Of a stretch of DNA of 52,412 nt, positions 10,237 to 45,254 are shown piece by piece; the first letter of the stretch is position 1; every line of letters begins with the position of its first letter. A model generated the notes under the pieces. It worked only from the letters and a program-made list of their open reading frames with translations, did no database searches and was not told where the DNA came from. The DNA lies in IMG/VR virus record IMGVR_UViG_3300025838_000051, positions 1 to 52,412 of that record. One strand, written 5' to 3'. This DNA comes from a virus (Duplodnaviria > Caudoviricetes). Both the position numbers and the translations under genes were made by a program.

Positions 10237-10472
10237 TGCAACTTGGCGATATGGTCACCAAGGCTCTCAGTTCCATCGGTATCACCTCGGAAAGGGTTGA
10301 GCACTACCTTGGTCGCCCTTGTGGATGCAAGGAACGAGCCCGCAAACTGAATGCCCTTGGAGCATGGGCCCGACGGGTGTTAGGCGGCAAAAAGGAGGAT
10401 GCGGAAAAGCATCTCGACAATCTGATCGAACAAGGGGATCCGGGGCCCGTACCGATCAAACTGGAGCGATAA
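10236..10472 (+). CDS. small phage protein with LGD...CGC motif
   Basis: LGDMVTKALSSIGI...CGCKERARKLN; AAGGAGG RBS, TGATG coupling. Confidence 0.6.
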   Translation: MQLGDMVTKALSSIGITSERVEHYLGRPCGCKERARKLNALGAWARRVLGGKKEDAEKHLDNLIEQGDPGPVPIKLER

Positions 10473-10492
10473 TCGTAACCAAGGAGCAAACA

Positions 10493-11341
10493 ATGTACCC
10501 TAACATCGGCATTATCGGTAACGGTGTTGTCGGGCAGGCAATTGCCCGGAGCTATCTGGAACATGCAGAGGTTTTCATCCATGATTCAAGGCCTACGCGG
10601 TCACCGCATACCTTGAAATACGTGCTGAAACATGCCAAAATCATTTTCCTTTGCCTGCCAACGCCATTGCATCGCGATCCAAAACATGGGTTGGATATTT
10701 CGGCCATTCGTTCCGTTTGCCGTCAACTGACAGCCCGGCCTGATCTGGTCTACGTTTTGAAAAGTACCGTTCCGATTGGGACAACCAAAGCCTTGCGACG
10801 GGAATTTTGGCTGGATAACCTGGTTCATTCGCCTGAGTTTCTCACCGCCCGTTGTGCTGCCCTTGATGCCTGCTTGCCCTCCCGGAACATCATTGGCACG
10901 ACAGGAGACCTTCCTGCAGGACCTGTCTGGAAGGACCATGAAATCCGGCTTCTGCATGACCTGTACCAGCAACGGTTCCCGGGAGTGCCGATCCACATCA
11001 TGACCAGTGACGAAAGCGAAGCCGTCAAGCTGTTCCAGAATTCTTTTTTCGCAACCAAGATCTCGATCTTCAACCAGCTCCATCACCTGTGCCAACGGGA
11101 TGGCCTCAATTGGGACAGAATCCTGCCGGGCCTGCTGGCGGATGGCCGGATCCATCCATCTCATACCAAAGTTCCGGGACCGGATGGCAAATACGGCTTT
11201 GGTGGCGAATGTTTGCCCAAAGATCTGGCACAATTGATCTGCGAAATGGAACGCCCTGGTACGATGCCAATTGATGAGAATATTTTTCAGTCTGTTGCCA
11301 ACCGCAATCAGATTGACCGAATTTGGGAGGCCTCCGCATGA
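10493..11341 (+). CDS. ugd: UDP-glucose/GDP-mannose dehydrogenase family protein (short form)
   Basis: IIGNGVVG Rossmann motif, KSTVPIGTT, HSPEFL, EAVKLFQN, GFGGECLPKD; start moved to ATG 10493 behind AAGGAG. Confidence 0.9.
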   Translation: MYPNIGIIGNGVVGQAIARSYLEHAEVFIHDSRPTRSPHTLKYVLKHAKIIFLCLPTPLHRDPKHGLDISAIRSVCRQLTARPDLVYVLKSTVPIGTTKALRREFWLDNLVHSPEFLTARCAALDACLPSRNIIGTTGDLPAGPVWKDHEIRLLHDLYQQRFPGVPIHIMTSDESEAVKLFQNSFFATKISIFNQLHHLCQRDGLNWDRILPGLLADGRIHPSHTKVPGPDGKYGFGGECLPKDLAQLICEMERPGTMPIDENIFQSVANRNQIDRIWEASA

Positions 11342-12312
11342 ATCAACGACCCAAAATCGGTTTGATCGGTTACCGGACGCACCAAGGAGGACTGTCGGAA
11401 GTCAACCGGCAATTAGCGAAATATTGCAATGTCACGGACTGGCTTGTGATTCCTTCGGCAAGCCCGTCTTTGCCCGGCAGTAGCAATATCAAGGACTGGC
11501 AGGTGGATGAAACTGCGGCTTTCGTGCGAGCGGTGGACGTGGTGCTGTTTGCGGAAACGCCCCATTATCCATCCATCCTTGTGGAAGCCCGGAAACAGGG
11601 TAAGGCTGTAGTCTGCATACCCATGCAGGAATGGCTTTTTCCTGAACGGGATCCATGGACATCACTGGTAGATCGCTACCTATGCCCAACCCGGCATTGC
11701 TTTGATCTGTTCAAGGATAAATTGCCCTGCACCCTGTTTGAATGGCCTGCCGATACAGCCAGACATGAGTGCAGGCCAAGGATCAAATGCGAGCAATTTC
11801 TGTGGATCCGGGGCAATGGCGGATTCCTTGGGAGAAAAGGGGAACACACGATCCGGAAATTGGTCCGGCTGTGGCCTGAGATTCCATTGACCATACTCAC
11901 TTGGAATCCGATGCGGGACCTGACTGGCCCCAACCTGCAATACCGGTTTTGTGCAGACGACAACCGCAATATCTACGATGACAGTGACGTCTTGCTGTTA
12001 CCTCACACCCGCGATGGTATTGGCTTGTCCTGTCTGGAAGCGGCTTGTGCAGGCCTGCCCGTCATCGCCACCCATGGCCGTCCGTGGGATGAATATTTCT
12101 TGCTTGACTGGATCGAATCCCAGCAGGACGCGGGATCTTATATCCCTAATGCCCGCCACCTCGAAACCTTGTGTCGCGATTGGCATGGCAAGGGCATTTA
12201 TCAGCAATCCATTGACTCCTACCTATGGGCCAAAGCGCGATCATGGACCAATCGGGCCGGCCTTATTAACCAGCTATTACGGGAGGAACACCTGACATGC
12301 CAACACAAATGA
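11338..12312 (+). CDS. GT-B (GT4-like) glycosyltransferase
   Basis: GRKG; DVLLLP...DGIGLSCLEAACAGLPVIAT motif; ATGA overlap with ugd. Confidence 0.85.
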   Translation: MNQRPKIGLIGYRTHQGGLSEVNRQLAKYCNVTDWLVIPSASPSLPGSSNIKDWQVDETAAFVRAVDVVLFAETPHYPSILVEARKQGKAVVCIPMQEWLFPERDPWTSLVDRYLCPTRHCFDLFKDKLPCTLFEWPADTARHECRPRIKCEQFLWIRGNGGFLGRKGEHTIRKLVRLWPEIPLTILTWNPMRDLTGPNLQYRFCADDNRNIYDDSDVLLLPHTRDGIGLSCLEAACAGLPVIATHGRPWDEYFLLDWIESQQDAGSYIPNARHLETLCRDWHGKGIYQQSIDSYLWAKARSWTNRAGLINQLLREEHLTCQHK

Positions 12313-15163: not shown

Positions 15164-16246
15164 ATGGCACGTTCGCCTATCTGGCCGCCCAAACGTCGCG
15201 TCCACAAAACCGGCCAGGAATATATCTGTTTCAAAAAACACACTTATTATCTCGGTCAGCCAGGTTCGGCTGAAGCCGACGAAAAATATCGTGCCTTGCT
15301 GTTACAGTTGGCTCCTGCTGCTTCCATCGGACTCCCCGTTCCCCCGGACTTGGCTGATCTTACGGTTGAGGATGTTGTCTCCCGGTGGATCGTGGAAGAA
15401 ATTCCTCGCTATCCTCGCAGTTCCCGCGAGCCTGCACAGTTTCGATATAGCCTAGTCCCATTGCTGGAGTTGTTCGGTACGACCCTTGCAAAAAATTTCC
15501 GAGCTGGACAGCTGGAGCAGGTTCAGATGGCCATGGCCAAAACCTTGATTCGACCTGTCGTCAATCGGCGGATTGTCCGGATCCGGACAGTCTGGAGGTG
15601 GGTCGAGCAAAAAGGATTGGTCCCACCTGGATCGTGGGAAAACCTGCGCACACTCAGGGGGCTATCTGCATGGGATGCCCGCGTACGTCAGCCAGCCAAA
15701 AGGCTTGCCATCACTGAAGCCGATATTACCCGCATTGCAAATGCAGCTCCTGCGGTTGTAAGGGCAATGATCTGGACCCAGTATCTGACCGGTATGCGAT
15801 CTGGAGAGGTCCGCACAGCCCGGGTAGGGGAAATTGACCGATTAGGCGATATCTGGATCTATCGACCTGCCAATCACAAAATGGCCTATCGCGGCCAATC
15901 CCGGGCCATTCCAATCGGTCCCCGAGCCCAAGAGTTGCTAAAGCCTTATCTGCTACGACCTTCGGAGGAGTACGTGTTTCATCCCGTCCTTGAAGCCCGT
16001 CGTGGAAATGTCTGTTACAGCGATACCAGCTATGCGCAGGCTTGCAGGCGAGCAGCCCTGTCCTGCGACATCATAGGATTCCATCCCTATTTGCTACGAC
16101 ACGCGGCCAAACAGCATTTGACGGAGCTTTATGGACTGGATACCGCCCGGGCGGTATTGGGACAGCTAAGCCTGGGCACAACCAATCTGTATGGATCAGC
16201 TGTCGATCTGCGTGTCGCCATCAATGCAATACAAAAGTCCGGATAG
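15164..16246 (+). CDS. int: tyrosine recombinase / phage integrase
   Basis: TGMRSGE (R), HK (K), HPYLLRH, LGQ...TTNLY (Y); N-terminal YLGxxGSxEAxxKY arm-binding region. Confidence 0.95.
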   Translation: MARSPIWPPKRRVHKTGQEYICFKKHTYYLGQPGSAEADEKYRALLLQLAPAASIGLPVPPDLADLTVEDVVSRWIVEEIPRYPRSSREPAQFRYSLVPLLELFGTTLAKNFRAGQLEQVQMAMAKTLIRPVVNRRIVRIRTVWRWVEQKGLVPPGSWENLRTLRGLSAWDARVRQPAKRLAITEADITRIANAAPAVVRAMIWTQYLTGMRSGEVRTARVGEIDRLGDIWIYRPANHKMAYRGQSRAIPIGPRAQELLKPYLLRPSEEYVFHPVLEARRGNVCYSDTSYAQACRRAALSCDIIGFHPYLLRHAAKQHLTELYGLDTARAVLGQLSLGTTNLYGSAVDLRVAINAIQKSG

Positions 16247-18037: not shown

Positions 18038-18574
18038 ATGTCCGCCGCATTAAGTTTGTACGGTTTAACCCACAATCATGCAGGTATGGAATTGATGATT
18101 GAGGATGCAATCGATCAGGAGCGTCCTCAGGAAGAGATTGACCGCCTACTACAGGAGCAGCTGGTGCGAGAGGGCCAGATTGAGGCCAAAGTCGATAATT
18201 ATATCCGGTATATCCGCCATCTCGAAGCCGTAGCTGCTGCGAGGCAGGAGGAATCCGACAGGTTGCACCAACTGGTCCAGTCCAGCATGTCCAAGGTTGC
18301 TTCGATGAAGCAGGCCCTCAAAGAGGGCCTGAAAATCTTGGGCAAGCCCAAGTTATCTACCCCCCATCACGAAATCTCTGTCCGCAAAAACGGTGGCAAA
18401 GAGCCGCTGATTATCGAGCCCTCCGCAAATCCGGAAAATCTGGATCAGGGGTGGGTAAAAATTGTTGTAACGAAACGGATTGATACGGACCTTATTCGTC
18501 AGGCACTGGAAAACGGAGAGGTCCTTGATTTTGCCCATTTGGGCCAGCGTGGGGATCACCTGAGTATACGGTAG
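18038..18574 (+). CDS. Siphovirus Gp157 family protein
   Basis: KVDNYIRYIRHLEA...ESDRL...ISVRKN...IDTDLIRQALENGEVLDFAHL...HLSIR. Confidence 0.85.
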   Translation: MSAALSLYGLTHNHAGMELMIEDAIDQERPQEEIDRLLQEQLVREGQIEAKVDNYIRYIRHLEAVAAARQEESDRLHQLVQSSMSKVASMKQALKEGLKILGKPKLSTPHHEISVRKNGGKEPLIIEPSANPENLDQGWVKIVVTKRIDTDLIRQALENGEVLDFAHLGQRGDHLSIR

Positions 18575-19625: not shown

Positions 19626-20786
19626 GTGGAGACAAAAAAAATGAGTAGCAATGTTGTTGAATATACTCCCGATCAGGTTTCTTTAATCAAAGACACGTGT
19701 TGCCGTGATGCCAGCGATCTGGAGTTAAAGTTTTTTCTAAACCAGGTGCAGCGGACTCAGCTGGATCCGCTGTCCAAGCAGATTTATGCAATTAAACGGT
19801 ACGATACGGCTCTTCGTCGCGAGGTCTTGGGTATTCAGGTTGGGATTGATGGCCTCCGATTAATCGCTGAGCGAACAGGCGAAACGGATGGTCAAGATGG
19901 GCCATACTGGTGCGGTGAAGACGGCAAATGGGTCGACGTCTGGTTAAGCAATAAACCACCGTCTGCGGCTAAAGCGGTAGTGTACCGGAAGGGCAGGACT
20001 CACGCCTATGTCGGCATAGCCCGATGGACCAGTTATTGCCAGCTAACTAAGGACGGTAGCCCCACACGAATGTGGCAAAAAATGTCAGACCTAATGCTGT
20101 ACAAATGCGCAGAGGCATTGGCACTCCGAAAGGCATTTCCCCATGAGTTGTCCGGGATTTACACTGATGACGAAATGGATCAGGCTATTCCTGTTGTCGA
20201 GGAATCGCCTGCAATCTCGCATACTAAAACGTCTGCAATACCACACAAGCATACGCCTGCCCAGATTGCTCACGCTCCCGGAATCCGCAAGGATCAGATG
20301 GATCGGCTGGCGGTTTTGATACGCCATCTGGGCGCCAAACCTGTACAGGATTTGATGATCCAAACGTATGAAAAATCCAAGCGGGCTGAGTTGACCGAAA
20401 ACGAGGCCCGTGGCCTCATCTCCGCCCTGGAAAAGTGGAATCTTGCTGAGCCTGCCCCAGAGCCTATTCCAGAACAGCCTGTCCCCGTAGTACTCGCGAA
20501 AAAATTTGAGATAACAGTTAATGATTCCTGGACATTTGATCCGACTCAACCGCCGGACGATGACGGCCAGTTAATCAATACAGGCGCGATGCGAATCGTA
20601 TCAAATCTGATGAAGCAGGCTAAGACCGAAGTAGGATACAACTTCACCAAAGAGGTCTGCGAGCTTCAGTTTAATGTTGGATCCCTAACAGAGTTGACCC
20701 TTTATCAGGCATGGATCTTGATCCATGACCTTACCAGCCGTCTGGATGGAACCGGACAGGAGCAGGAACAGGAGGCAGCGGTATGA
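19626..20786 (+). CDS. bet: Bet/RecT-family ssDNA annealing protein
   Basis: ELKFFL...LDPLSKQIY...QVGIDGLRLIAERTG...WQKMSDLMLYKCAEALALRKAFP..LSGIYTDDEM. Confidence 0.92.
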   Translation: METKKMSSNVVEYTPDQVSLIKDTCCRDASDLELKFFLNQVQRTQLDPLSKQIYAIKRYDTALRREVLGIQVGIDGLRLIAERTGETDGQDGPYWCGEDGKWVDVWLSNKPPSAAKAVVYRKGRTHAYVGIARWTSYCQLTKDGSPTRMWQKMSDLMLYKCAEALALRKAFPHELSGIYTDDEMDQAIPVVEESPAISHTKTSAIPHKHTPAQIAHAPGIRKDQMDRLAVLIRHLGAKPVQDLMIQTYEKSKRAELTENEARGLISALEKWNLAEPAPEPIPEQPVPVVLAKKFEITVNDSWTFDPTQPPDDDGQLINTGAMRIVSNLMKQAKTEVGYNFTKEVCELQFNVGSLTELTLYQAWILIHDLTSRLDGTGQEQEQEAAV

Positions 20787-21103: not shown

Positions 21104-22132
21104 ATGAAAGCCGAGCAGGTTAGTTATTTGAAAATTGACGAAATTATCGCGGATCCAGATACTCAGGTCAGGGTATCACACAGCGAGGAAAGGGAAATTG
21201 AGTATGCCGAGCATTACGCCAATGGAGTGCAGTTTCCCCCGCTGGTTGTGTTTTACAATTCATCTAAAGATCAGGACAACCGCTATTGGTTGTCTGATGG
21301 CCACCATCGTTTTGCGGCAGCCAAGCGAGCCGGATTGCAGGTTATTAATTGCAAGGTAAATTTTGCGTCTGGCGATACAAGAGAAGCGGCAATTGAGGCC
21401 GCATGTGGTGCCAACGCCACCCATGGTATGCCTCGGACCCGCGCGGATAAACGTCGTACGGTTGAGATTTATTGGAGAACTTTTTGCAAGGGACGAGAAG
21501 TGCGCAAATCTTCAAGAATTATTGCCGAAATCTGCAAAGTGACGCAGCCATTTGTTGATTCCGTCCTAAATGATTTAGAAACGACTGATAATAATTATCA
21601 CTCAAAAATTGAGGGCAAGGACGGTAGAACCTATACTGTCAAACCCAAATCTAAACCCAAGCCAGTTCCCATCAAAATATCTGAATCAATTGATGAACTT
21701 GTTGATCAGGAGGAGCCAGAAATTCCCCAAGTGGTTGTTCCTCCTGAGTGCGATATGGAAGGCCATGCCCTTACTTCGGTGGTCAAACCGGCTTTTGAAG
21801 TCGTGCCCAAATTTGCAGAACTTATGCGATTGCTGGAAACAGCCGGGAATCTGGTGCAGGCAATTGCAGTGCATCCGGGCGGAGAATTTTTTCGCTTGAC
21901 CTGCCAGCTGCATGGAAAAAAAGGCAATGCCAAACATCGGTCAGCCGAGCTGGATGAACTGCTATGCAATGTACGCATGAGCCAACCTCATTCGATTTGT
22001 GCCCGCTGTCACGGTGTCGGGGAAACCGACTCGGTAAAGTGTATCTCCTGCTGCGGTCGTGGCTGGTGGGACAGGGTAACCTGGACAGGGGCCAGTTCGG
22101 AACTCAAATCGGGATTGTCCAAGTGCATATAG
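21104..22132 (+). CDS. ParB/Srx-domain protein with HTH and C-terminal zinc finger
   Basis: FPPLVVF...WLSDGHHRFAAA; ANATHGMPRTRADKRR; HTH SSRIIAEICKVTQPFV; CARCHG...CISCCGRGW. Confidence 0.85.
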   Translation: MKAEQVSYLKIDEIIADPDTQVRVSHSEEREIEYAEHYANGVQFPPLVVFYNSSKDQDNRYWLSDGHHRFAAAKRAGLQVINCKVNFASGDTREAAIEAACGANATHGMPRTRADKRRTVEIYWRTFCKGREVRKSSRIIAEICKVTQPFVDSVLNDLETTDNNYHSKIEGKDGRTYTVKPKSKPKPVPIKISESIDELVDQEEPEIPQVVVPPECDMEGHALTSVVKPAFEVVPKFAELMRLLETAGNLVQAIAVHPGGEFFRLTCQLHGKKGNAKHRSAELDELLCNVRMSQPHSICARCHGVGETDSVKCISCCGRGWWDRVTWTGASSELKSGLSKCI

Positions 22133-22216
22133 ATTTTGATTTGATCGTGGCGGACTTTATTGCGGGAGCGTGGGCGGAGGCAATTGCCGAGAATCCGCCC
22201 ACGCCAAGGAGGGATC

Positions 22217-23797
22217 ATGGTAATGGCGTCAAAGCCAAAATTGATAAGGCCGTACCAAGCCGATGCGATACAAGCAATTTTGAAAAATCTGGAGAGGCAT
22301 CAATCAACCCTGCTTGAGCTGGCAACAGGGCTTGGAAAGACCTTCTGCTTCAGCAATGTGATCAAAGAATCGCCTGGGCGATGGCTTGTTTTGGCCCACA
22401 CTCGCGAACTGATTGAACAGGCGGCCAAAGATATCCACGAAAACACCGGCGAACGGCCAGACATTGAGATGGGCTCCCGGCAGGCGTACGTCAATGGCAG
22501 TCTGGGGCGGCGGATAGTTGTCGGGAGCGTTCAAACCTGCAAAAGTCTGAAAAGGCTATCGCGGTTTCCAAGGGATTATTTTGACGGCCTTGTCATTGAT
22601 GAAGGGCATCACGCAGCGGCGGAAACCTATCGCAGGATCATGGGCTATTTTAAGGACGCCAAGCGGTTGCTGGTGACAGCCACTCCCAAACGTGGCGACA
22701 AAATCGGGCTTGATGGCTTTTGTGACTCGGTTGCATATCAGTATGGAATTGAGCCAGCCGTCGAAGATTCCTGGCTGGTGCCGATCACCCAGGAGGTTAT
22801 TAGGGTTGACTCGCTGGATTATTCCAAGGTCAACACCTCCGATAATGGAGACATGAATCGGGAGGAGTTGGACAAGGCACTGAGGGAAGAGGCAGCTTCC
22901 CAAAAAATGGTCAGCAGTGCTTTTGAGGTTGTTGGTAATCGGCCAACCATCTGGTTTTGTGCGACAGTGGAGCACGCCCGTTGCCTTGCAATCATACTGG
23001 AGCGATATGCGGGTAGTGGCCGGGTGGAATACCTGTCAGGCGAGAGTTCTCCTGATCATCGCAAGATTGTGATTAACAAATATAAATCCGGGGAAATCCA
23101 GCATTTGCTGAATTGCGGGTTATTTCTGGAGGGCTTTAACGCTCCTGCAACGTCTGCAATCGTGATGGCGAGGCCGACCAAAAGTCTGGCTCTGTACACC
23201 CAGATTCTGGGAAGAGGAACGCGAACGTTGCCGGACACAATTGACGACGCGGCCTGCCTGCATTCGCCCGAGCTACGACGCCAGCGCATTGCTGAGTCTG
23301 CGAAAAAAGATGTGCTGGTGATTGACTATGTTGGCAATGCCGGCAAGCACAAAATTGTTACGGCCCGAGATGTGTTGGGCGGGAAATACAGCCCTGAAGT
23401 GATTGAATATGCCGGTGGATTGCTTGAAGAATCCAAGGGGGATGTGAGTGAAACCCTTCTTAGGTCCCAGGCGGAAATAGCCTTTTTAGCCGAAGAACGA
23501 CAGCAGCAGGAAGAAGAAGAGAAAAAGCTGCGAGCTGCCAGAAAACATATTAAAGCAGAGGTTTCCTTCATCCGCACCGAGGTCAGCCCTTTTGAGAACA
23601 GTCACGTCGGTAAGGCCCCGGTTGCACCTAAGCCGGTCGAAATGGCAACCCATGGCCAAGCGGGGTATATCGCTAAATTATCCCGCGAAGCTGGCAAGCC
23701 CATGACCTACAAACAGGCCTTGCGATTAACCAAAAAAATGGCGTCCGGGGTGATTGCCAAACTCAAAAAGGAGGCAGGTGCCTATGCAGGCAATTAA
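22217..23797 (+). CDS. SF2 DExH (Res-like) helicase
   Basis: RPYQ, LATGLGKT, DEGHH, TATP, EGFNAP, QILGRGTR. Confidence 0.92.
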   Translation: MVMASKPKLIRPYQADAIQAILKNLERHQSTLLELATGLGKTFCFSNVIKESPGRWLVLAHTRELIEQAAKDIHENTGERPDIEMGSRQAYVNGSLGRRIVVGSVQTCKSLKRLSRFPRDYFDGLVIDEGHHAAAETYRRIMGYFKDAKRLLVTATPKRGDKIGLDGFCDSVAYQYGIEPAVEDSWLVPITQEVIRVDSLDYSKVNTSDNGDMNREELDKALREEAASQKMVSSAFEVVGNRPTIWFCATVEHARCLAIILERYAGSGRVEYLSGESSPDHRKIVINKYKSGEIQHLLNCGLFLEGFNAPATSAIVMARPTKSLALYTQILGRGTRTLPDTIDDAACLHSPELRRQRIAESAKKDVLVIDYVGNAGKHKIVTARDVLGGKYSPEVIEYAGGLLEESKGDVSETLLRSQAEIAFLAEERQQQEEEEKKLRAARKHIKAEVSFIRTEVSPFENSHVGKAPVAPKPVEMATHGQAGYIAKLSREAGKPMTYKQALRLTKKMASGVIAKLKKEAGAYAGN

Positions 23798-24379: not shown

Positions 24380-24577
24380 ATGATGGCCGAAGCAGTATTG
24401 GAAAGCGAAAAAATTGAACGCGAGATCCAAACCGGTCGCGTGGTCAAGGATCCTGAGCTAACAGCCATGGACCGGATTTGCCGGATATTGGCGGATTTTG
24501 ATTTGAATGGACGACGGAGAGTGTTGGATTGGCTTTCGTCAAAGCTGATTCCAAAGGACCTTACCGATACATTTTAA
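24380..24577 (+). CDS. small hypothetical protein
   Basis: DPELTAMDRICRILADFD...RRRVLDWL; AGGAG RBS. Confidence 0.65.
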   Translation: MMAEAVLESEKIEREIQTGRVVKDPELTAMDRICRILADFDLNGRRRVLDWLSSKLIPKDLTDTF

Positions 24578-24591
24578 ATTTGCTTGATCTT

Positions 24592-24630
24592 GCGTATCGT
24601 GCAGCTATTCAAATTGCACGATACGCTTTT
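24592..24630 (+). terminator. 12-bp perfect inverted repeat plus TTTT (terminator or operator)
   Basis: GCGTATCGTGCA-11 nt-TGCACGATACGC-TTTT. Confidence 0.55.
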
Positions 24631-24938
24631 GGTAACACCATAGCCCCGGGTTGGCACAGTGAGCGATCCACTCAGGCAGTGAGGCTTCGGCACCCTGCGG
24701 TCGCATCGGCCAAAATCATCGTCGATACCAGGAAGTTTAACCGCCTGGCGAACGGATCGAGAATGGATAGGTGAGAGGCGTTTTACCTATCCGGGTGGGC
24801 ATCACGGCAGGCACTGGCACCCAAGGAAAGATCCAAGTAGCGTGCTCAAAACCCCGACACGATAAACCCGTGAGCTGGATTAGTGCACCTCTCCAAGGGT
24901 GCATTACGCCCTCACTCTGCCCCGGAGCTGGTTTACCA
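24630..24938 (+). ncRNA. candidate large multibranch structured RNA of unknown class
   Basis: 5' end 24630-24665 pairs with 24907-24938; six internal hairpins, a cUUCGg tetraloop and G-U pairs favouring the + strand. Confidence 0.55.
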
Positions 24939-24998
24939 GCGAACGGGGAACGATTAAAGGGGTTTGACTTGACCCCTACAACTAAAACAGGAGCTGGC

Positions 24999-26069
24999 TT
25001 GAATACTACGACCAAAACAACACTTACTGAAGAACAAACGGACATTGTTGACCAAATCATTGAAGGGATTGAAAATGGAATTCTGATCCAGACCCTTGGT
25101 GGATATGCCGGGACCGGCAAAACCACCTTGGTTGCCACCCTGCATGAATTGCTGCCAAACTTTGCTGTATGTGCTTTTACGGGAAAGGCTGCAACCGTTC
25201 TGGGTAGAAAGGGAATTGCGGACACTTCCACAATTCACTCGCGAATTTACAAGCCAGTCACGGAATTGGATGGAAGTGTGTCGTTTGAATTGCGACATCG
25301 TTTTGAAATGAATGGAATTGAAGGGTTTTTGGTGGATGAGGCCTCCATGGTATCGCGGTCTATTTATGAGGACCTGTTGTCTTTCAAACTTCCAATTGTT
25401 TTTGTTGGCGATCATGGACAGCTGGAACCGGTTGGCAGCGACATCAATGTCATGGCTAACCCCATGTATCGGCTTGAAACGATTCACCGGAATGCTGGCG
25501 AGATTGCAAGGTTTGCCGAGCATTTGCGAGAAGGGAAATTGGCGAACCATTATCAATCCAAGGGCAAAGTAAAGATTATGTACGGCCATCGCAAAATGGC
25601 TGAATGGGTGCAATACGAAGCCGATCAAATGATCTGCGCGTTCAATGCGACGCGGGTCAGTTTTAATGATTTATATCGCGAAGCAGCTGGCAGGTCTGGA
25701 TTGGTTGAGCCAGGTGAGCGGGTGATCTGCTTGCGAAACAACCGGCAGAGCGGAGTTTACAACGGTCAGCAGGGCATTGTTAAAACCGTGAAGTTAAGCA
25801 AGAAAATAATGACCGTAGACATGGAGGGAGTTGGAGAGGTTGAGCTGGAATTCTGCCCTGAGCAGTTTGGTCAGGAGAAGCCATTGATTTTACAACCGTA
25901 CCACGTCAATCTGTTTGACTACGGTTATTGTATTACCGCACACAAATCCCAGGGCTCGGAATGGGGCAGGGTGGTGGTCAAGGAGGAACGATGCAATAAA
26001 TGGAATCATGTACGGTGGTCGTATACCGCAGCCAGCAGGGCCAAGGATGAATTGATCTGGATTGGTTGA
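24999..26069 (+). CDS. SF1B RecD/Dda-like helicase
   Basis: LTEEQ, GYAGTGKTT, STIHS, VDEASMV, VGDHGQL, YGYCITAHKSQGSEW, YTAASRAK; TTG start behind AGGAG. Confidence 0.92.
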   Translation: MNTTTKTTLTEEQTDIVDQIIEGIENGILIQTLGGYAGTGKTTLVATLHELLPNFAVCAFTGKAATVLGRKGIADTSTIHSRIYKPVTELDGSVSFELRHRFEMNGIEGFLVDEASMVSRSIYEDLLSFKLPIVFVGDHGQLEPVGSDINVMANPMYRLETIHRNAGEIARFAEHLREGKLANHYQSKGKVKIMYGHRKMAEWVQYEADQMICAFNATRVSFNDLYREAAGRSGLVEPGERVICLRNNRQSGVYNGQQGIVKTVKLSKKIMTVDMEGVGEVELEFCPEQFGQEKPLILQPYHVNLFDYGYCITAHKSQGSEWGRVVVKEERCNKWNHVRWSYTAASRAKDELIWIG

Positions 26070-26390: not shown

Positions 26391-26741
26391 ATGTCACCGA
26401 TTAACAAGCCAGCCGAAATACCTGTTGAAATACCTGATTTTGCTGAAGGTCCCGTTGGGGTTTATCTTGTTTGCCTAAATGGGGAGCGACGGACATTTCA
26501 GCAGGTGCAAGCCGATCTGCAAAAGCTGATCGACTATAATCGCAGCATCAATGCCGGGAAACCTGTCAAAGACAACCAGTCACGAAATGAAGACCTGCAA
26601 AAACAATTGGTATTGGCTGAGCAGGCTCAAGCGGAGCCGATGCCCAAGGTGCCGGTGGTTGAGCCGACGGCAACAAACCGCATCAGCAATGTGATTCAGA
26701 GGGGAAGCTACAAGAGCCGCATGAGGCCAAGCAACAATTGA
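26391..26741 (+). CDS. hypothetical protein
   Basis: AAGGA RBS, collinear. Confidence 0.55.
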   Translation: MSPINKPAEIPVEIPDFAEGPVGVYLVCLNGERRTFQQVQADLQKLIDYNRSINAGKPVKDNQSRNEDLQKQLVLAEQAQAEPMPKVPVVEPTATNRISNVIQRGSYKSRMRPSNN

Positions 26742-26749
26742 GGTGTGCC

Positions 26750-27103
26750 ATGAAAGGGTGGTCCGAAAAGGAATTCACGAAAGCCGTTTTAAACGAAGCT
26801 ACAAGATTTGGCTGGAGCCTTTCTTATCATCCTTTGCCTGCAACGGTTGCCAAAGGAAAAATCATTACACCCTATCAAGGTAATGGCAAAGGTTTTCCGG
26901 ATTTGATACTGCTTAAATCAACCTGCGGGATTGTTGCGGAATTGAAGGTCGGCAACAACAAGCCAACTCCGGAGCAGCAAAAATGGCTGGAGGCCTTTCG
27001 GGCCCTTGGTTTTATTGCGGAGGTTTGGTATCCACGGGACTGGGACAGGATCGTGAGCCTGTTGTCAGGCGGCAGGGCCAGCAGTTTAGCGGTAAGGATT
27101 TAA
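26750..27103 (+). CDS. VRR-NUC (PD-(D/E)xK) endonuclease / resolvase
   Basis: SEKEF...GFPDLILL...AELK...PTPEQQKWLEAF...VWYP.DW. Confidence 0.88.
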   Translation: MKGWSEKEFTKAVLNEATRFGWSLSYHPLPATVAKGKIITPYQGNGKGFPDLILLKSTCGIVAELKVGNNKPTPEQQKWLEAFRALGFIAEVWYPRDWDRIVSLLSGGRASSLAVRI

Positions 27104-27104
27104 A

Positions 27105-27323
27105 ATGGCAGCATGGCACCCAGGGTCAGCGACAGGCGGCAGGATTCCCCAACCGAAAGCAGACGCCTTGGTATTGTGCGAATTGCCAGCCGGGCAAACC
27201 AGACTGCTGTTGTACCTGGGCAAGCATCAATGGCACTGTTATGAAAAAAATGGCGTATTTTCTGAGTGGCAAAAAGTGATATCGTTTACCGTGTGGCCGA
27301 AGCGGAAGGAGCCGAAAATATGA
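27105..27323 (+). CDS. hypothetical protein
   Basis: 72 aa, AAGGA RBS, ATGA overlap downstream. Confidence 0.5.
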   Translation: MAAWHPGSATGGRIPQPKADALVLCELPAGQTRLLLYLGKHQWHCYEKNGVFSEWQKVISFTVWPKRKEPKI

Positions 27324-28063
27324 TTGCTGATACAACAAACGCCAAGCAATTAGCCGAAGACAATATGGGGCTGTTGAAAAAATGGTGCAAATTCAAACTG
27401 CATCATTTGAAAAAACGGCCAAACAGGAAACACAAGCTGCGAAGTCTGGATGAGCTTTTGGCGGACATGTCTGAAGCCTATATGCTTGGGATTCATTCCT
27501 ATCTGAAAAAAAGTCCGGGCAATGAAGTTAGCCTGGGCACATGGATCTGGAACATGCTGAACTGGGAATGGTTTCGGCAATGCCATCGGGAAAGGATCGT
27601 TCCATTTTCGGCCAAGGAATTTATAAGCCAAAAGGAATTGGACGATTCGGAAAAGCAGTCTCATGTGTGGTCGATATCAGATGTCGACATGAAAATTCTT
27701 AAAAATTTATCCTATCAGCCCAACATAATTGAGGAGATGGAAAAGCGGGATCAGAAAGCCCAGTTTGAAGCTGCTCTGGTAATGGTTCGTGGAGGACGGC
27801 GACGGTTGCTGGATAAATACCTGCAAGGAGCATCGTATGCGGAGCTTGGCAGGGAACTGGGAGTGAGCAGGCAGGCAATTGAGCAGCGTATCAAAATTAT
27901 TATCGAAAGGATCAGCGAACATTTAACAAAGGAAAAACATGAGAAAGAAAAAATCACTGTGCAAGCACAACGGCCTGTTAGGGTTGCCCCACCTGTTAGA
28001 CAAGGTCAATCTGTCAATACGACAGTTGCTGGAATTGCAGGATGGTGGGAGGTGCAAATATAG
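27320..28063 (+). CDS. sigma70-like factor (candidate late-gene activator)
   Basis: Region-2-like NMGLL...LGTW; region-4 HTH SYAELGRELGVSRQAIEQR. Confidence 0.7.
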   Translation: MIADTTNAKQLAEDNMGLLKKWCKFKLHHLKKRPNRKHKLRSLDELLADMSEAYMLGIHSYLKKSPGNEVSLGTWIWNMLNWEWFRQCHRERIVPFSAKEFISQKELDDSEKQSHVWSISDVDMKILKNLSYQPNIIEEMEKRDQKAQFEAALVMVRGGRRRLLDKYLQGASYAELGRELGVSRQAIEQRIKIIIERISEHLTKEKHEKEKITVQAQRPVRVAPPVRQGQSVNTTVAGIAGWWEVQI

Positions 28064-28598: not shown

Positions 28599-29489
28599 AT
28601 GACAACAGTAGGAGACCAACAATTTGAAGTGGAAATGCGTCGCAATCCTCGGGATCAATATGCACGATTGTTGTACGCAGACTGGTTGGAAAGCGAGGGG
28701 CGAAATGAGGACGCCATGTTTATCCGGTGCCTGCATAAGCTCGCCACTGAGAAAGTAAAACGGGTGTCCGACAGGCGTGCGCTCGAGAATCAACTGAGGC
28801 AACTGGCATTGTCTCGACAATTCCGCCCCGGTCCATTTTGGACCAATTGTATTGGGATGAAATTTGCTTGGGTCCAAGATGATCTGCATTATCCTGCGGG
28901 CGGATTCTGGCTGGGAGTATATCCTGTAACTCAAGCCCAGTATTTGAGGGTGAAGAAAAATAACCCCAGTTTTTTTAACAAAGAAGGCGTTGATTTAAAT
29001 GGATATCCTGTTGATGGTGTTCGATGGGGCGATTGCTATGAATTTATTCACTGGCTGGAATTATTGGACAAATATAACAGATATGAATTGCCCACCCCAT
29101 CAGAATGGGTAACAGCCTGTTCCGGAGGAATTCATTGCAGCGACTATTGGTTCAGGGATTATCCGTTCAAATATGCAAATGTTTATACTGGGATACCCCA
29201 TAATAATACAACTCCGGTGGACAAATACCCGGCCAACCCGTTTGGCATCAAAGACATGATTGGAAATGTGTGGGAATGGTGCAAGACAGAGCCTAATGAA
29301 ACAATGTGGCGACCGATTATGGGGCCCAGTTGGGCTTACCCTGCAATGGCTCCAAAAGCACAATTAAACAGGTCGCTAGGTCAAGGTAATTCCGCCAATA
29401 CGCATGTTCTTTCCGCCGACATTGGTTTCCGGATCAAACTGGTAAACATTATCCCTACAGTCGTTGACAAGGATCAAAAGCCTTGCTAA
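28599..29489 (+). CDS. TIGR02996 domain + FGE-sulfatase (SUMF1, C-type-lectin fold) protein
   Basis: NPRDQYARLLYADWLESEG; NCIGMKFAWV, YPVTQAQY, NNPSFF, YELPTPSEW, NPFGIKDMIGNVWEWC, IGFR. Confidence 0.88.
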   Translation: MTTVGDQQFEVEMRRNPRDQYARLLYADWLESEGRNEDAMFIRCLHKLATEKVKRVSDRRALENQLRQLALSRQFRPGPFWTNCIGMKFAWVQDDLHYPAGGFWLGVYPVTQAQYLRVKKNNPSFFNKEGVDLNGYPVDGVRWGDCYEFIHWLELLDKYNRYELPTPSEWVTACSGGIHCSDYWFRDYPFKYANVYTGIPHNNTTPVDKYPANPFGIKDMIGNVWEWCKTEPNETMWRPIMGPSWAYPAMAPKAQLNRSLGQGNSANTHVLSADIGFRIKLVNIIPTVVDKDQKPC

Positions 29490-38287: not shown

Positions 38288-38366
38288 CACCCGCTACAAG
38301 CTAATGAACAACGTGATCAATTCCAGTCGACTGATAATTATTATCAGTCGACATAAACCAAGGAGT
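38288..38366 (+). repeat. late-gene upstream repeat, copy 1, with 27-bp palindrome
   Basis: CACCCGCTACAAGC plus 42 bp (38325-38366) identical to 44184-44225; palindrome GTCGACTGATAAT-T-ATTATCAGTCGAC at 38326-38352. Confidence 0.9.
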
Positions 38367-38466
38367 TGCGTGGCGTGTTTTTCATTTCAACAAAAATGAT
38401 CAATTTACTATATATTTTGCAAGGTAGGTTTATAATCAAATTATCTGTTGGAGGAGGACTTCAGCC

Positions 38467-39222: not shown

Positions 39223-39418
39223 CCGCCTGCGACGATTGCCGGACCGTGCCTGGCGAAAACGGGTAGCAACCGTGACCTACATCCACAATGGGACCATCTG
39301 GCTTAGCGACTTCTTTGGCACACTAGGGCAATGGGAGCAGTATCAGGATGAATGGGTCCGGCCAATGGGATGGCGGGTGATTGATATTATGTGGCGGGAG
39401 AACCATGGACCTGCGTGA
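39206..39418 (+). CDS. small hypothetical protein
   Basis: GGAGG RBS, overlaps neighbours. Confidence 0.5.
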   Translation: MVCPPDRLRRLPDRAWRKRVATVTYIHNGTIWLSDFFGTLGQWEQYQDEWVRPMGWRVIDIMWRENHGPA

Positions 39419-40028
39419 TATCCTGGCACTGCATCGGTATCGCGATGATCCTATCGGGCTGGCGGAGTCGCTATGGCCACACGCAAGGTTTTACGCCAAG
39501 CAGCGAGAGTGCATTGAATCCGTTCGCGACAACGACGAGACATTCATTGTTGCGGGCAACATGCTTGGCAAAGATTACCAGGCGGGCTTCATCTGCCTAT
39601 GGTTTTTCCTGACTCGCCACCCCTGTCGTATCGTAACCACCAGCGTCAAGGACGACCACCTTCGAGTTCTTTGGGGCGAGATTGGCCGGTTTATTTCCAC
39701 CTGCAAAATCCCACTGGATGAGCGTGAGGGGGGAATCTTGCGAATCAATCACCGCGATATCCGCAAAAGCGTTAACAACAGGAAATGCGACATTTCTTAT
39801 CTGGTTGGAATGGTCAGCAAGTCCGGCGAAGGTATGGCTGGCCATCATGCCGCCAACACACTGGGAGTGATTGATGAGGCTTCTGGTGTAGACGATTTGG
39901 TTTACACGCAAATGGACACCTGGGCCAAAAGGAAGCTGGTTTTCGGTAACCCGATGAACACCACCAATTTTTTCTACCGCGCTGTAAAATCCGGTAACTT
40001 GCAGGAAAAGGAGGCTGTCAATGGTTGA
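39405..40028 (+). CDS. terL: terminase large subunit, N-terminal ATPase part
   Basis: YAKQ, Walker A AGNMLGKD, GHHA, Walker B IDEASGV, FGNP, FFY; ends shortly after. Confidence 0.85.
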   Translation: MDLRDILALHRYRDDPIGLAESLWPHARFYAKQRECIESVRDNDETFIVAGNMLGKDYQAGFICLWFFLTRHPCRIVTTSVKDDHLRVLWGEIGRFISTCKIPLDEREGGILRINHRDIRKSVNNRKCDISYLVGMVSKSGEGMAGHHAANTLGVIDEASGVDDLVYTQMDTWAKRKLVFGNPMNTTNFFYRAVKSGNLQEKEAVNG

Positions 40029-40260
40029 TCAAACTTTGTTGGTGCTGATGCAAGCGGAGCTGGACCAGGGCAATTTCCATGGAGCAGGCGTTTTTCGCAG
40101 GCTGCACAGCGCAATTGCCCAAGTGAAGGGACTGGATGATCCAACCTTCAAGGATTTTCTAGTCACCCCACTGGATTCTCTATGGGACCATCCGGCTTTA
40201 CTTTTAGGGGATTTGAGCTACAGCAATTTTTGGTATTCCCGCAAATTAAACAACGGCTAA
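40021..40260 (+). CDS. 79-aa ORF inserted between the TerL halves
   Basis: Strong AAGGAGG RBS; no terminase-like motifs. Confidence 0.55.
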   Translation: MVDQTLLVLMQAELDQGNFHGAGVFRRLHSAIAQVKGLDDPTFKDFLVTPLDSLWDHPALLLGDLSYSNFWYSRKLNNG

Positions 40261-40266
40261 AAACGT

Positions 40267-41211
40267 ATGGAGTCACCAAAACAACGGTATTACCGCAAGG
40301 TGATCAAAATCTCCGCCACCGATTCGCCCAATGTCCAGCTGGCCTTGGAAGAAAAGCGACGTGGCCTGCCGGTCTCCAATACCATGATACTGCCAGGCGT
40401 CATTGACTGGTACCAATATCAAAAACGGCTGCAAACATGGGACCCGATTCGCAAATGTATTGGCTTGGACGGCGATTTTTACGAGGGTTCGGAGGTTTTG
40501 CTGTTCCCGCCATTGTGGCTTAATCGCGCTGAAGAGGTTGCGGTGGAAAACCGCAAGCGGACACGACACGCGAGGGCCATGGGAGTCGATCCGGCTGAAG
40601 GCGGCGACAGCAGTGTCTGGACAATCGTGGATGAATGGGGAATAATCAAACAGATCAGCATGAAGACCCCCAATACGGCTGTGGTCACCGCTGTCACCAT
40701 TAAACTGATTCATGAGTTTCACGTTTCCCCGGAGCGAGTGATGTTTGATCGCGGCGGCGGCGGAAAGGAACACGCGGACAGGCTGGAATCGCAAGGTTAC
40801 CGCGTGCAATCCATCGGCTTTGGCGAAACTGTGACATTGGCTCCCAAAAGAGGCCTACGACAGATTGACGAAAAAATTGAACTGCTGGAGGAACGCTACG
40901 CCTACAAAAACCGTAGGGCCGAAATGTATGTCGGGCTAAGCATGTTGCTGGATCCTGACATTTCTCCCGGCTTTGGCATTCCTGCAGAATACACGGAATT
41001 GAGACGGCAGTTGGCACCTTTGCCCAAATGGTACGACCCTGAAGGTAGATTGTTTTTGCCACCCAAGAAACGGGCCAGCGGAGAGCGGGAGTCCGACAAG
41101 GTCACCATCGACAAACTGATTGGCTGTTCTCCAGATGAGGCTGACAGCTTGGTATTGGCAGTGTACTCCATGCAGAACAAGCCGCGACGAAACAAGGCAA
41201 CGGCTGTGTGA
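40267..41211 (+). CDS. terL: terminase large subunit, C-terminal lid + RNase H-like nuclease part
   Basis: ISATDSPNV, GDF, MGVDPAEGGD, FDRGGGG, YKNRRAEMY, SPDEADSL. Confidence 0.85.
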   Translation: MESPKQRYYRKVIKISATDSPNVQLALEEKRRGLPVSNTMILPGVIDWYQYQKRLQTWDPIRKCIGLDGDFYEGSEVLLFPPLWLNRAEEVAVENRKRTRHARAMGVDPAEGGDSSVWTIVDEWGIIKQISMKTPNTAVVTAVTIKLIHEFHVSPERVMFDRGGGGKEHADRLESQGYRVQSIGFGETVTLAPKRGLRQIDEKIELLEERYAYKNRRAEMYVGLSMLLDPDISPGFGIPAEYTELRRQLAPLPKWYDPEGRLFLPPKKRASGERESDKVTIDKLIGCSPDEADSLVLAVYSMQNKPRRNKATAV

Positions 41212-44148: not shown

Positions 44149-44225
44149 CACCCGCTACAAGCCAAAAAAAAGTGGTCAATTATAGTCGACTGATAATTAT
44201 TATCAGTCGACATAAACCAAGGAGT
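44149..44225 (+). repeat. late-gene upstream repeat, copy 2, with 27-bp palindrome and RBS
   Basis: Palindrome 44185-44211; AAGGAG leads to ATG 44229. Confidence 0.9.
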
Positions 44226-44228
44226 CGC

Positions 44229-45254
44229 ATGGCACGTTATTTGAAAACCAAGTCGGCCATGGTGCGGGGAGTAAACAGCAGGCCAACAGGCAAACGTCCG
44301 CCCAATCCATTGCGAGTCGACCCCACCCGGACTGGCGGATTAGTCCGGGTGATGACGTCGCATATTAACAAGCAATTTGCCAGATTGACAGCAGCCATTC
44401 GGCAAAAGATCGAGGTGGAAGACGCGCTGGGGCTGAAGGCGTCAACGGGGCCCGCGCTGATCAATGCGATGGTTGTCCTCAATGATGTCCCTTGGAAGTT
44501 TGGCACGGATCCGCAGAAATTACGGCAATTTCAGGACTGGCTAAGACACCAGGCGGAAGCAACCCTGACCACTGTTGATGAACGACAGCTGTGGGACAAG
44601 TTTGTCCATGACGGTTTTCAGCAAGGGGCAAAACGCAGCTACGACGATTATCGCGGTAAACGGAAGCTGCATGAAACCCTGGATTTTTATCATGGCACGC
44701 GAGAGGAATTCCTTAAAACAGCTTTTGCTCAGCCTGTCGCAATAGAAAAGGTTGAGTTGATTGCCGAACGCACATTCAACGAAATTCAGGGCGTTTCCGA
44801 CACCATGAAGACCCGCATGGGCCGTGTTTTGGCGGAAGGGCTGACACGCGGCGAAAGCCCCCGTACGATGGCTGCCGGACTGATCGAGGAAGGCGAGATC
44901 GGTAAAAAAAGAGCATTGACCATAGCCCGCACGGAGGTCATTCGGGCCCATGCCCAAGGGCAACTGATTGCCCTGAAAAAAATGGGGGTTGAGGAATTAG
45001 GTGTTGCCACGGAATGGAGCACTACGGGAGATGAAAAAGTCTGCGAACTGTGCGAGCCTCTTCAGGGAATTGTCCTTACCCTTGACGAAGCGGAAGGGCT
45101 GATTCCAAGGCATCCCAATTGCCGATGTGCCTGGATTCCCGCAGTGGATGAGGAAGAAGATATGAAACGGAAAAAGAGCGAGATCGATGACGCTCTTGAA
45201 GAGTCGGGGCTGGAAAGCGTGGACATTTCACCAAAACGGCCAAAACTGGGTTAA
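44229..45254 (+). CDS. minor head morphogenesis protein (SPP1 gp7 / Mu F family)
   Basis: DPTRT, RALTIARTEVIRAH, DEKVCELC, IPRHPNCRCAWIP. Confidence 0.9.
   Translation: MARYLKTKSAMVRGVNSRPTGKRPPNPLRVDPTRTGGLVRVMTSHINKQFARLTAAIRQKIEVEDALGLKASTGPALINAMVVLNDVPWKFGTDPQKLRQFQDWLRHQAEATLTTVDERQLWDKFVHDGFQQGAKRSYDDYRGKRKLHETLDFYHGTREEFLKTAFAQPVAIEKVELIAERTFNEIQGVSDTMKTRMGRVLAEGLTRGESPRTMAAGLIEEGEIGKKRALTIARTEVIRAHAQGQLIALKKMGVEELGVATEWSTTGDEKVCELCEPLQGIVLTLDEAEGLIPRHPNCRCAWIPAVDEEEDMKRKKSEIDDALEESGLESVDISPKRPKLG

Follow-up and report, generated by a model that had tools for sequence, protein, structure and literature searches.

The window analysed here is the whole 52,412-nt stretch of IMG/VR virus record IMGVR_UViG_3300025838_000051, which derives from an uncultured lake phage and has an estimated completeness of 73%. 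The phage is a temperate-type, freshwater virus, and Pfam and PHROG profile searches delineate a replication/recombination module on the + strand that comprises an integrase (15164-16246), a Gp157/Gam-like gene (18038-18574), RecT (19626-20786), a ParB-like gene (21104-22132) and a DEAD/ResIII (DEAD-box) helicase (22160-23797), followed by three small ORFs with no assigned function, the non-coding gap that is the subject of this study, and a Dda/RecD-like helicase. On the 3′ side of this second helicase, two small ORFs, a VRR-NUC gene (26738-27103) and a gene for a sigma-70 region-4-like protein with sigma-70 region 4 and HTH matches (27266-28063) are also encoded on the + strand, as are all genes flanking the gap. 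With the same profiles, no initiator, primase or polymerase gene was recognisable in the window; ARAGORN called no tRNA or tmRNA gene in it, and profile searches found no IscB, TnpB or reverse transcriptase gene near the gap.

The gap spans 24578-24998 (421 nt) and is among the longest in the phage genome. Its left edge is set by the TAA stop of a 65-aa + strand ORF (24380-24577) with no assigned function, which yielded no Pfam family and PHROGs matches only at E≥0.22, and its right edge by the gene for the 356-aa Dda/RecD-like helicase, which runs from a TTG at 24999 to a stop at 26069 and has its own AGGAG ribosome-binding site (24989-24993) five bases before the TTG. The product of this gene matches Pfam AAA_30, UvrD_C_2, PIF1 and SH3_13 as well as the PHROG Dda-like helicase. 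Although its frame is open from 24771 (432 aa), a reading of the gap as the helicase N-terminus was rejected because the helicase domains begin only at residue 75-85 of that frame, the source record's own helicase protein is 356 aa long from TTG 24999, and the homologues listed (~47-56% identity, 97-100% coverage) are mostly roughly 350-360 aa long, with a few up to about 420. The first-pass annotation had named this reading among the findings that would refute its RNA; the helicase instead starts at TTG 24999. An ORF scan returned nine ORFs of at least 20 aa that overlap the gap, and the long frames crossing it comprise 81 codons from 24529 (+), 76 codons from 24771 (+) and 164 codons on the - strand. 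These three frames were rejected as coding sequence, as they gave no Pfam family at E≤1 and a single PHROG at E=0.57, and the earlier description of a ~420-bp gap without a credible gene is thus borne out.

At a GC content of 0.544 (0.573 in the core), the gap is richer in GC than the genome (0.510) and than ten other gaps of at least 120 nt (0.405-0.531), the latter taken from a crude gene map that had itself wrongly scored 24578-24998 as coding. A consensus scan, which may not suit phage promoters, found no sigma-70-like promoter scoring at least 9/12 inside the gap. The phage encodes the sigma-70 region-4-like protein at 27266-28063, and if this protein redirected transcription, phage promoters would miss the sigma-70 consensus.

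A hairpin with a 12-13 bp stem and a 9-11 nt loop lies 15 nt past the upstream stop (stem-loop 24592-24626, + strand; dG -19.3 kcal/mol, probability 0.97) and is followed by UUUU, the whole covering 24592-24630. It contains a perfect 12-nt inverted repeat with an 11-nt spacer. A terminator consensus scanner did not call this hairpin because its loop exceeds 8 nt and its U-run consists of only 4 T; the terminator-like repeat that had been noted ahead of the element is nevertheless present as a 13-bp hairpin with its UUUU, and it may terminate or attenuate transcription. Three further hairpins on the + strand hold whatever context is folded, each, like the terminator-like one, at a probability of ~0.97 or more: a 12-bp hairpin with two G-U pairs and a GGCG loop at 24765-24792 (0.99 in all contexts), which is the most robust internal element; a 10-bp hairpin with two G-U pairs at 24881-24906 (0.96-0.97); and a 7-bp hairpin at 24958-24977 (0.98), which sits 12 nt ahead of the ribosome-binding site. 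The first-pass annotation had drawn seven stems inside or next to the element; those at 24765-24792, 24882-24905 and 24958-24977 proved robust, and the other four did not. The hairpin at 24663-24704, with its proposed cUUCGg loop at 24685-24690, is absent from the minimum free energy (MFE) structure and reaches a probability of 0.07-0.33; the stem at 24728-24748 ranges from 0.14 to 0.59 across contexts; and those at 24793-24822 and 24830-24881 do not rise above 0.12. The separate UUCG-loop hairpin and the 24728-24748 stem compete with a branched internal domain on the + strand (24664-24759) that is found in the MFE of every context, with probabilities of 0.15-0.92 per helix.

A long closing stem had also been proposed, joining 24630-24665 to 24907-24938 around an RNA of about 310 nt. 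Such a stem exists on paper, as 27 Watson-Crick pairs in seven segments that join 24625-24662 to 24912-24940, and it dominates when 24625-24945 is folded alone (MFE -122.1 kcal/mol; present in the centroid at probabilities of 0.57-0.99), but it does not survive the addition of flanking sequence. The probability of its CCGGG/CCCGG segment drops to 0.02 in 24578-24998, 0.00 in 24560-25060 and 0.01 in 24630-24998, and the stem is missing from the + strand MFE both of the whole gap and of 24631-24998. This fall to 0.02 or less occurs because the 5′ arm (24631-24662, +) pairs elsewhere: in the whole-gap fold (MFE -161.6 kcal/mol) 24644-24661 pairs with 24812-24826 and 24581-24591 with 24828-24839, while the 3′ arm (24912-24940, +) is taken up by local hairpins at 24870-24915 and 24920-24948 instead. 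Long-range stems of this size are uncommon in the genome: of 473 genomic windows, 7 have an MFE structure with a stem of at least 27 pairs (span of at least 200 nt, bulges of at most 3 nt), and 17 have one of at least 24 pairs within the same limits. Two other statistics for the closing stem were dropped as uninformative: unrestricted duplexfold of 150-nt arms (target rank 203/1040) and Smith-Waterman arm scoring, which captured no more than an 11-nt core (rank 5/347) or else entered a global regime (rank 14/694). The predicted ~310-base RNA architecture is context-unstable and stays an unproven candidate.

Folding stability was compared with dinucleotide shuffles. On the + strand, z was -3.05 for 24625-24945, -3.73 for the whole gap and -2.46 for 24631-24998, from which the terminator hairpin is excluded, and in each case none of 100 shuffles was as stable; on the - strand, the first two regions gave -2.72 and -2.99. 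Since natural sequence generally folds better than shuffles, a comparison with the genome's own windows was added, in which MFE was regressed on GC, G and U content. By this measure the 320-nt window at 24625 lies at -1.8 SD (rank 67 on the + strand and 70 on the - strand of 1302 genome windows), and the 421-nt gap lies at -2.36 SD (rank 10/474), with several coding windows scoring alike. The stability of the gap falls in the top 2-5% of the phage's mostly coding windows and is not outstanding for a region picked by eye from 52 kb. The check on folding energy suggested in the first-pass annotation thus came out better than shuffles (z -2.46 to -3.73) but unremarkable against the phage's own genome. 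For five long gaps upstream of related helicases, z ranged from -0.93 to +0.94, and in four of these gaps the GC content is lower than that of the surrounding locus.

The G-U pairs of the stems had been taken to favour a + strand RNA. They make up 10 of 107 pairs in the + strand MFE and 9 of 100 in the - strand MFE, and mirroring the MFE of each strand onto the other costs a similar amount of energy both ways; the G-U pairs therefore carry no strand signal. Since all 27 pairs of the closing stem are Watson-Crick, that stem is strand-neutral as well, and it appears in the whole-gap MFE of the - strand. The orientation of the genes is the only feature that favours a + strand transcript.

Searches for a known RNA family or for relatives of the gap came back empty. 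No Rfam model reached its gathering score anywhere in the window (cmscan, all 4227 models); the Rfam 15 families below threshold include GOLLD, ROOL, HEARO, group I and II introns, RNase P RNA, tmRNA, 6S RNA, riboswitches and self-cleaving ribozymes. A permissive cmscan of 24500-25100 at E≤10 returned one match, to a Dictyostelium snoRNA (16 bits against a threshold of 70, E=2.8) that lies inside the helicase gene. The first-pass statement that the element matches no recognised RNA class accordingly holds for Rfam, where nothing credible was found, and this lack of a match fits a new RNA and no RNA equally well. The gap gave no match among 50,697 phage records or 72,556 plasmids, is present in one copy in its own record, and had only chance matches (E≥0.2) in five candidate-host MAGs that carry related helicases.

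The helicase was used as a second route to related loci. A single-sequence search of the helicase protein against viral contigs found no close relative, and in metagenome contigs the gene was found only on a 4,408-nt contig (L082) identical to the window. Its best genome matches are scattered over several phyla at no more than 48% identity and support no host inference. With a 30-sequence helicase alignment (A1), 80 of 233 viral relatives and 80 of 426 genome relatives were kept, at 34-55% identity. When the gap was compared with 80 and then 162 of the relative loci by nhmmer and blastn, nothing better than E=0.31 was obtained. A covariance model (R1) was built on 24660-24795, a sub-domain that the two folds share; searched against the window together with 98 of 173 loci it matched nothing but its own sequence, and it had no match in five whole viral records. 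Two pattern scans of viral contigs yielded one match each, and both were rejected as chance because only the pattern itself agrees. Relatives of the DEAD-box helicase were represented by two loci at 46% identity, neither of which has a downstream Dda-like helicase or an obvious gap. Across 154 evaluable loci, the same-strand gap upstream of the Dda/RecD-like helicase has a median of 28 nt and reaches at least 300 nt in 17; a long leader is therefore not a trait of this helicase family.

Copies of the gap were found only in identical form, on the 4,408-nt contig, or in partial form at about 96% identity, in sequencing run X14. The stretch is contained in 14 sequencing runs, all of them freshwater DNA and none RNA. 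Run X14, which belongs to another study, holds contigs of a roughly 96% identical relative, each single and at a depth of about 3. Over 24565-24770 this relative has no substitutions in 205 nt and one 1-nt deletion, in the G-run at 24648, whereas within the helicase it has 2 differences in 156 nt (24996-25151), 15 in 339 nt (25214-25552) and 3 in 62 nt (25539-25600). Divergence steps up near 25200, from 2 of 361 nt to the left (24565-25151, ~0.5%) to 18 of 401 to the right (25214-25600, ~4.5%). The conservation of 24565-24770 could reflect constraint on the element; the step suggests a recombination or mosaic boundary inside the helicase gene, which explains the conservation equally well. Given this, and given single contigs at a depth of about 3, the conservation carries little weight here.

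The reading we favour, at a probability of about 40%, is that the gap may be an operon boundary, in which a terminator-like hairpin precedes a long untranslated leader, itself structured, that belongs to the helicase operon. The 13-bp hairpin with its U-run (24592-24630) would end or attenuate transcription of the upstream genes, and the following roughly 370 nt would form the GC-rich leader on the + strand, produced either by read-through or from a promoter with no recognisable match. Such a leader is predicted to fold into several stable local hairpins, and its 5′ arm (24644-24662) to pair with either 24812-24826 or 24912-24925. Because the 5′ arm has two alternative partners, the global fold is predicted to have two stable states or more, as would be fitting for a regulatory leader that controls the amount or the translation of the helicase message. 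In support, the genes on either side are encoded on the + strand, the helicase starts at a TTG with an AGGAG of its own, the hairpin follows the upstream stop by 15 nt, the GC content exceeds that of the genome and of the other gaps, and long GC-rich intergenic regions are known to be enriched in structured RNAs; in addition, the whole gap has a z of -3.73, against -0.93 to +0.94 for the five relatives' gaps, two alternative long-range pairings are predicted, and the X14 relative has no substitutions over 24565-24770. Against it stand the absence from the gap of a sigma-70-like promoter scoring at least 9/12, a U-run of only 4 U, a stability only in the top 2-5%, the fact that a long gap is not a helicase-family trait, the mosaic boundary in X14, and the lack, in the collections searched, of any homologue that would show selection on a pair.

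Intercistronic hairpins and leaders are familiar from the early regions of phages, as in lambda tR1/nut, HK022 put and the T7 RNase III sites. The gap resembles these in having a strong hairpin right after a stop codon, then an untranslated stretch, between genes on the same strand, but its 370-nt leader is much longer, and it has no sequence or model match to such elements, some of which are included in Rfam. If real, the leader or RNA would be a large regulatory RNA in a phage replication module, a setting with few known examples, and it would offer a handle on the timing of helicase expression in the phage.

A functionless spacer is the next most probable account. The gap would here be the remnant of gene decay or of an old MITE-like insertion whose terminal inverted repeats are the arms of the closing stem, with chance folding of GC-rich sequence next to an ordinary terminator. 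The stability of the gap is matched by coding windows elsewhere in the phage, and its fold is not robust; the 81- and 76-codon + strand frames abut and together span the whole gap, as a decayed gene might; and the gap is an orphan in every collection searched, in a helicase family that does not conserve a long gap. The frames nevertheless have no family match, and open frames of 76-81 codons are, by estimate, expected by chance at 57% GC. Non-functional phage spacers are usually short and AT-rich, the opposite of a gap that is long and GC-rich. As for an insertion, the ~310 nt bounded by imperfect, all-Watson-Crick inverted repeats are MITE-like, but MITEs and non-autonomous IS elements combine terminal repeats with a target duplication and multiple copies, and here the ends of the stem (24625-24631 / 24937-24945) show no duplicated target, the arms carry several indels, and beyond the single copy in the phage record no other was found in that record, the five candidate-host MAGs, the phage records or the plasmids.

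An unlikely explanation is the one from which the analysis set out, a discrete new ncRNA of roughly 310 nt (24630-24938), closed by the 27-bp stem and acting in trans or persisting in stable, processed form. When exactly 24625-24945 is folded, both the MFE and the centroid have the closing stem around a multi-branch interior, with a z of -3.05 that none of 100 shuffles equalled; the region is long and GC-rich, is explained by no Rfam family, and contains a stem of a size that only 7 of 473 genomic windows share. This architecture nevertheless loses its closing stem (probability of 0.02 or less) once flanks are included and retains three of its seven internal stems, and the region has no strand signal, no bracketing promoter or terminator, and an ordinary genome-wide rank. 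It is also a single copy with no relatives in the collections searched, and there is therefore no covariation. Equally doubtful is a broader version, in which a lineage-specific structured RNA of a new class, ~310-370 nt long and present as an independent ncRNA or as a switch-like leader, would toggle between 24812-24826 and 24912-24925 and control the helicase/VRR-NUC/sigma-like operon of unsampled freshwater phages. A hand-drawn closing stem together with a shuffle z near -3 does not set the region apart from coding background, and the promotion of an orphan sequence to an RNA class requires transcripts or relatives.

Several large RNAs in Rfam are associated with phages or prophages, among them GOLLD, ROOL and HEARO/IscB omega-RNA. 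A multi-stem phage RNA of several hundred nucleotides, as proposed here, would be akin to these and to group I introns, tmRNA, RNase P RNA and 6S RNA; it differs from them in that the gap has no Rfam match, no tRNA or tmRNA, and no IscB, TnpB or reverse transcriptase nearby. Long, GC-rich intergenic regions are a known enrichment criterion for structured RNAs, as outlined in the GC-IGR and DIMPL work (PMC6429828, PMC8723152). The gap is like the candidates described there in its length, in a GC content above that of the genome and in folding better than shuffles, but those candidates are, in these accounts, accepted only after covariation among homologues, and the gap has no homologues in the collections searched.

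The least probable of the readings is that the gap works as DNA, as an origin, a single-strand initiation site or a protein-binding region for the flanking helicases or recombination proteins, with its inverted repeats acting at the DNA level: it sits inside a replication/recombination module between two helicase genes, its closing-stem pairs are all Watson-Crick, the - strand folds about equally well (z -2.72 and -2.99) and the perfect 12-bp inverted repeat with its 11-nt spacer might be bound by a protein dimer, yet no similar element lies beside related helicases, and the folded ssDNA origin offered as an alternative in the first-pass annotation is without positive support. Theta-type origins have an AT-rich unwinding element and repeated initiator sites, while the gap has a GC content of 0.544, above that of the genome, no AT-rich region and no iteron family, with only two-copy repeats of 10-25 nt in the scanned interval 24400-25200, and no linked initiator gene. 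The ori transcript of lactococcal phage c2 comes from a non-coding origin region that is both transcribed and structured; the gap is alike in being non-coding, in lying within a replication module and in its strong predicted structure, and differs from such origins in the same lack of an AT-rich region, iterons or a linked initiator gene.

Other features of the window were observed along the way. A 76-nt direct repeat (38307-38382 and 44166-44241, 87% identical) has a partial third copy at 21575-21603 and holds a 27-bp perfect palindrome, with a ribosome-binding site after the repeat. The small terminase gene has one copy upstream of it, the other copy is at a head-morphogenesis gene, and the repeat is probably an operator or promoter that late genes share. 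Windows at these repeat sites rank with the most structured in the genome. Within the ORF at 46454-48904, the interval 47207-48411 holds a run of GAC/GAA/GAT-rich 29-nt repeats, with seven of the eight listed copies in this interval, which suggests that the predicted 816-aa protein has a long, acidic, low-complexity segment; the 320-nt window at 46465 is the most stable in the genome. The large terminase is spread over two ORFs, 39381-40028 (215 aa, the ATPase part) and 40267-41211 (314 aa, the later part of the profile), separated by about 240 nt (40029-40266) with a small open frame, an arrangement that could stem from an insertion or an intron, or from a gene that is genuinely split. Auxiliary-looking genes at 28599-29489 and 10319-12312 encode an FGE-sulfatase-domain protein and UDP-glucose-dehydrogenase-like and glycosyltransferase-like proteins.
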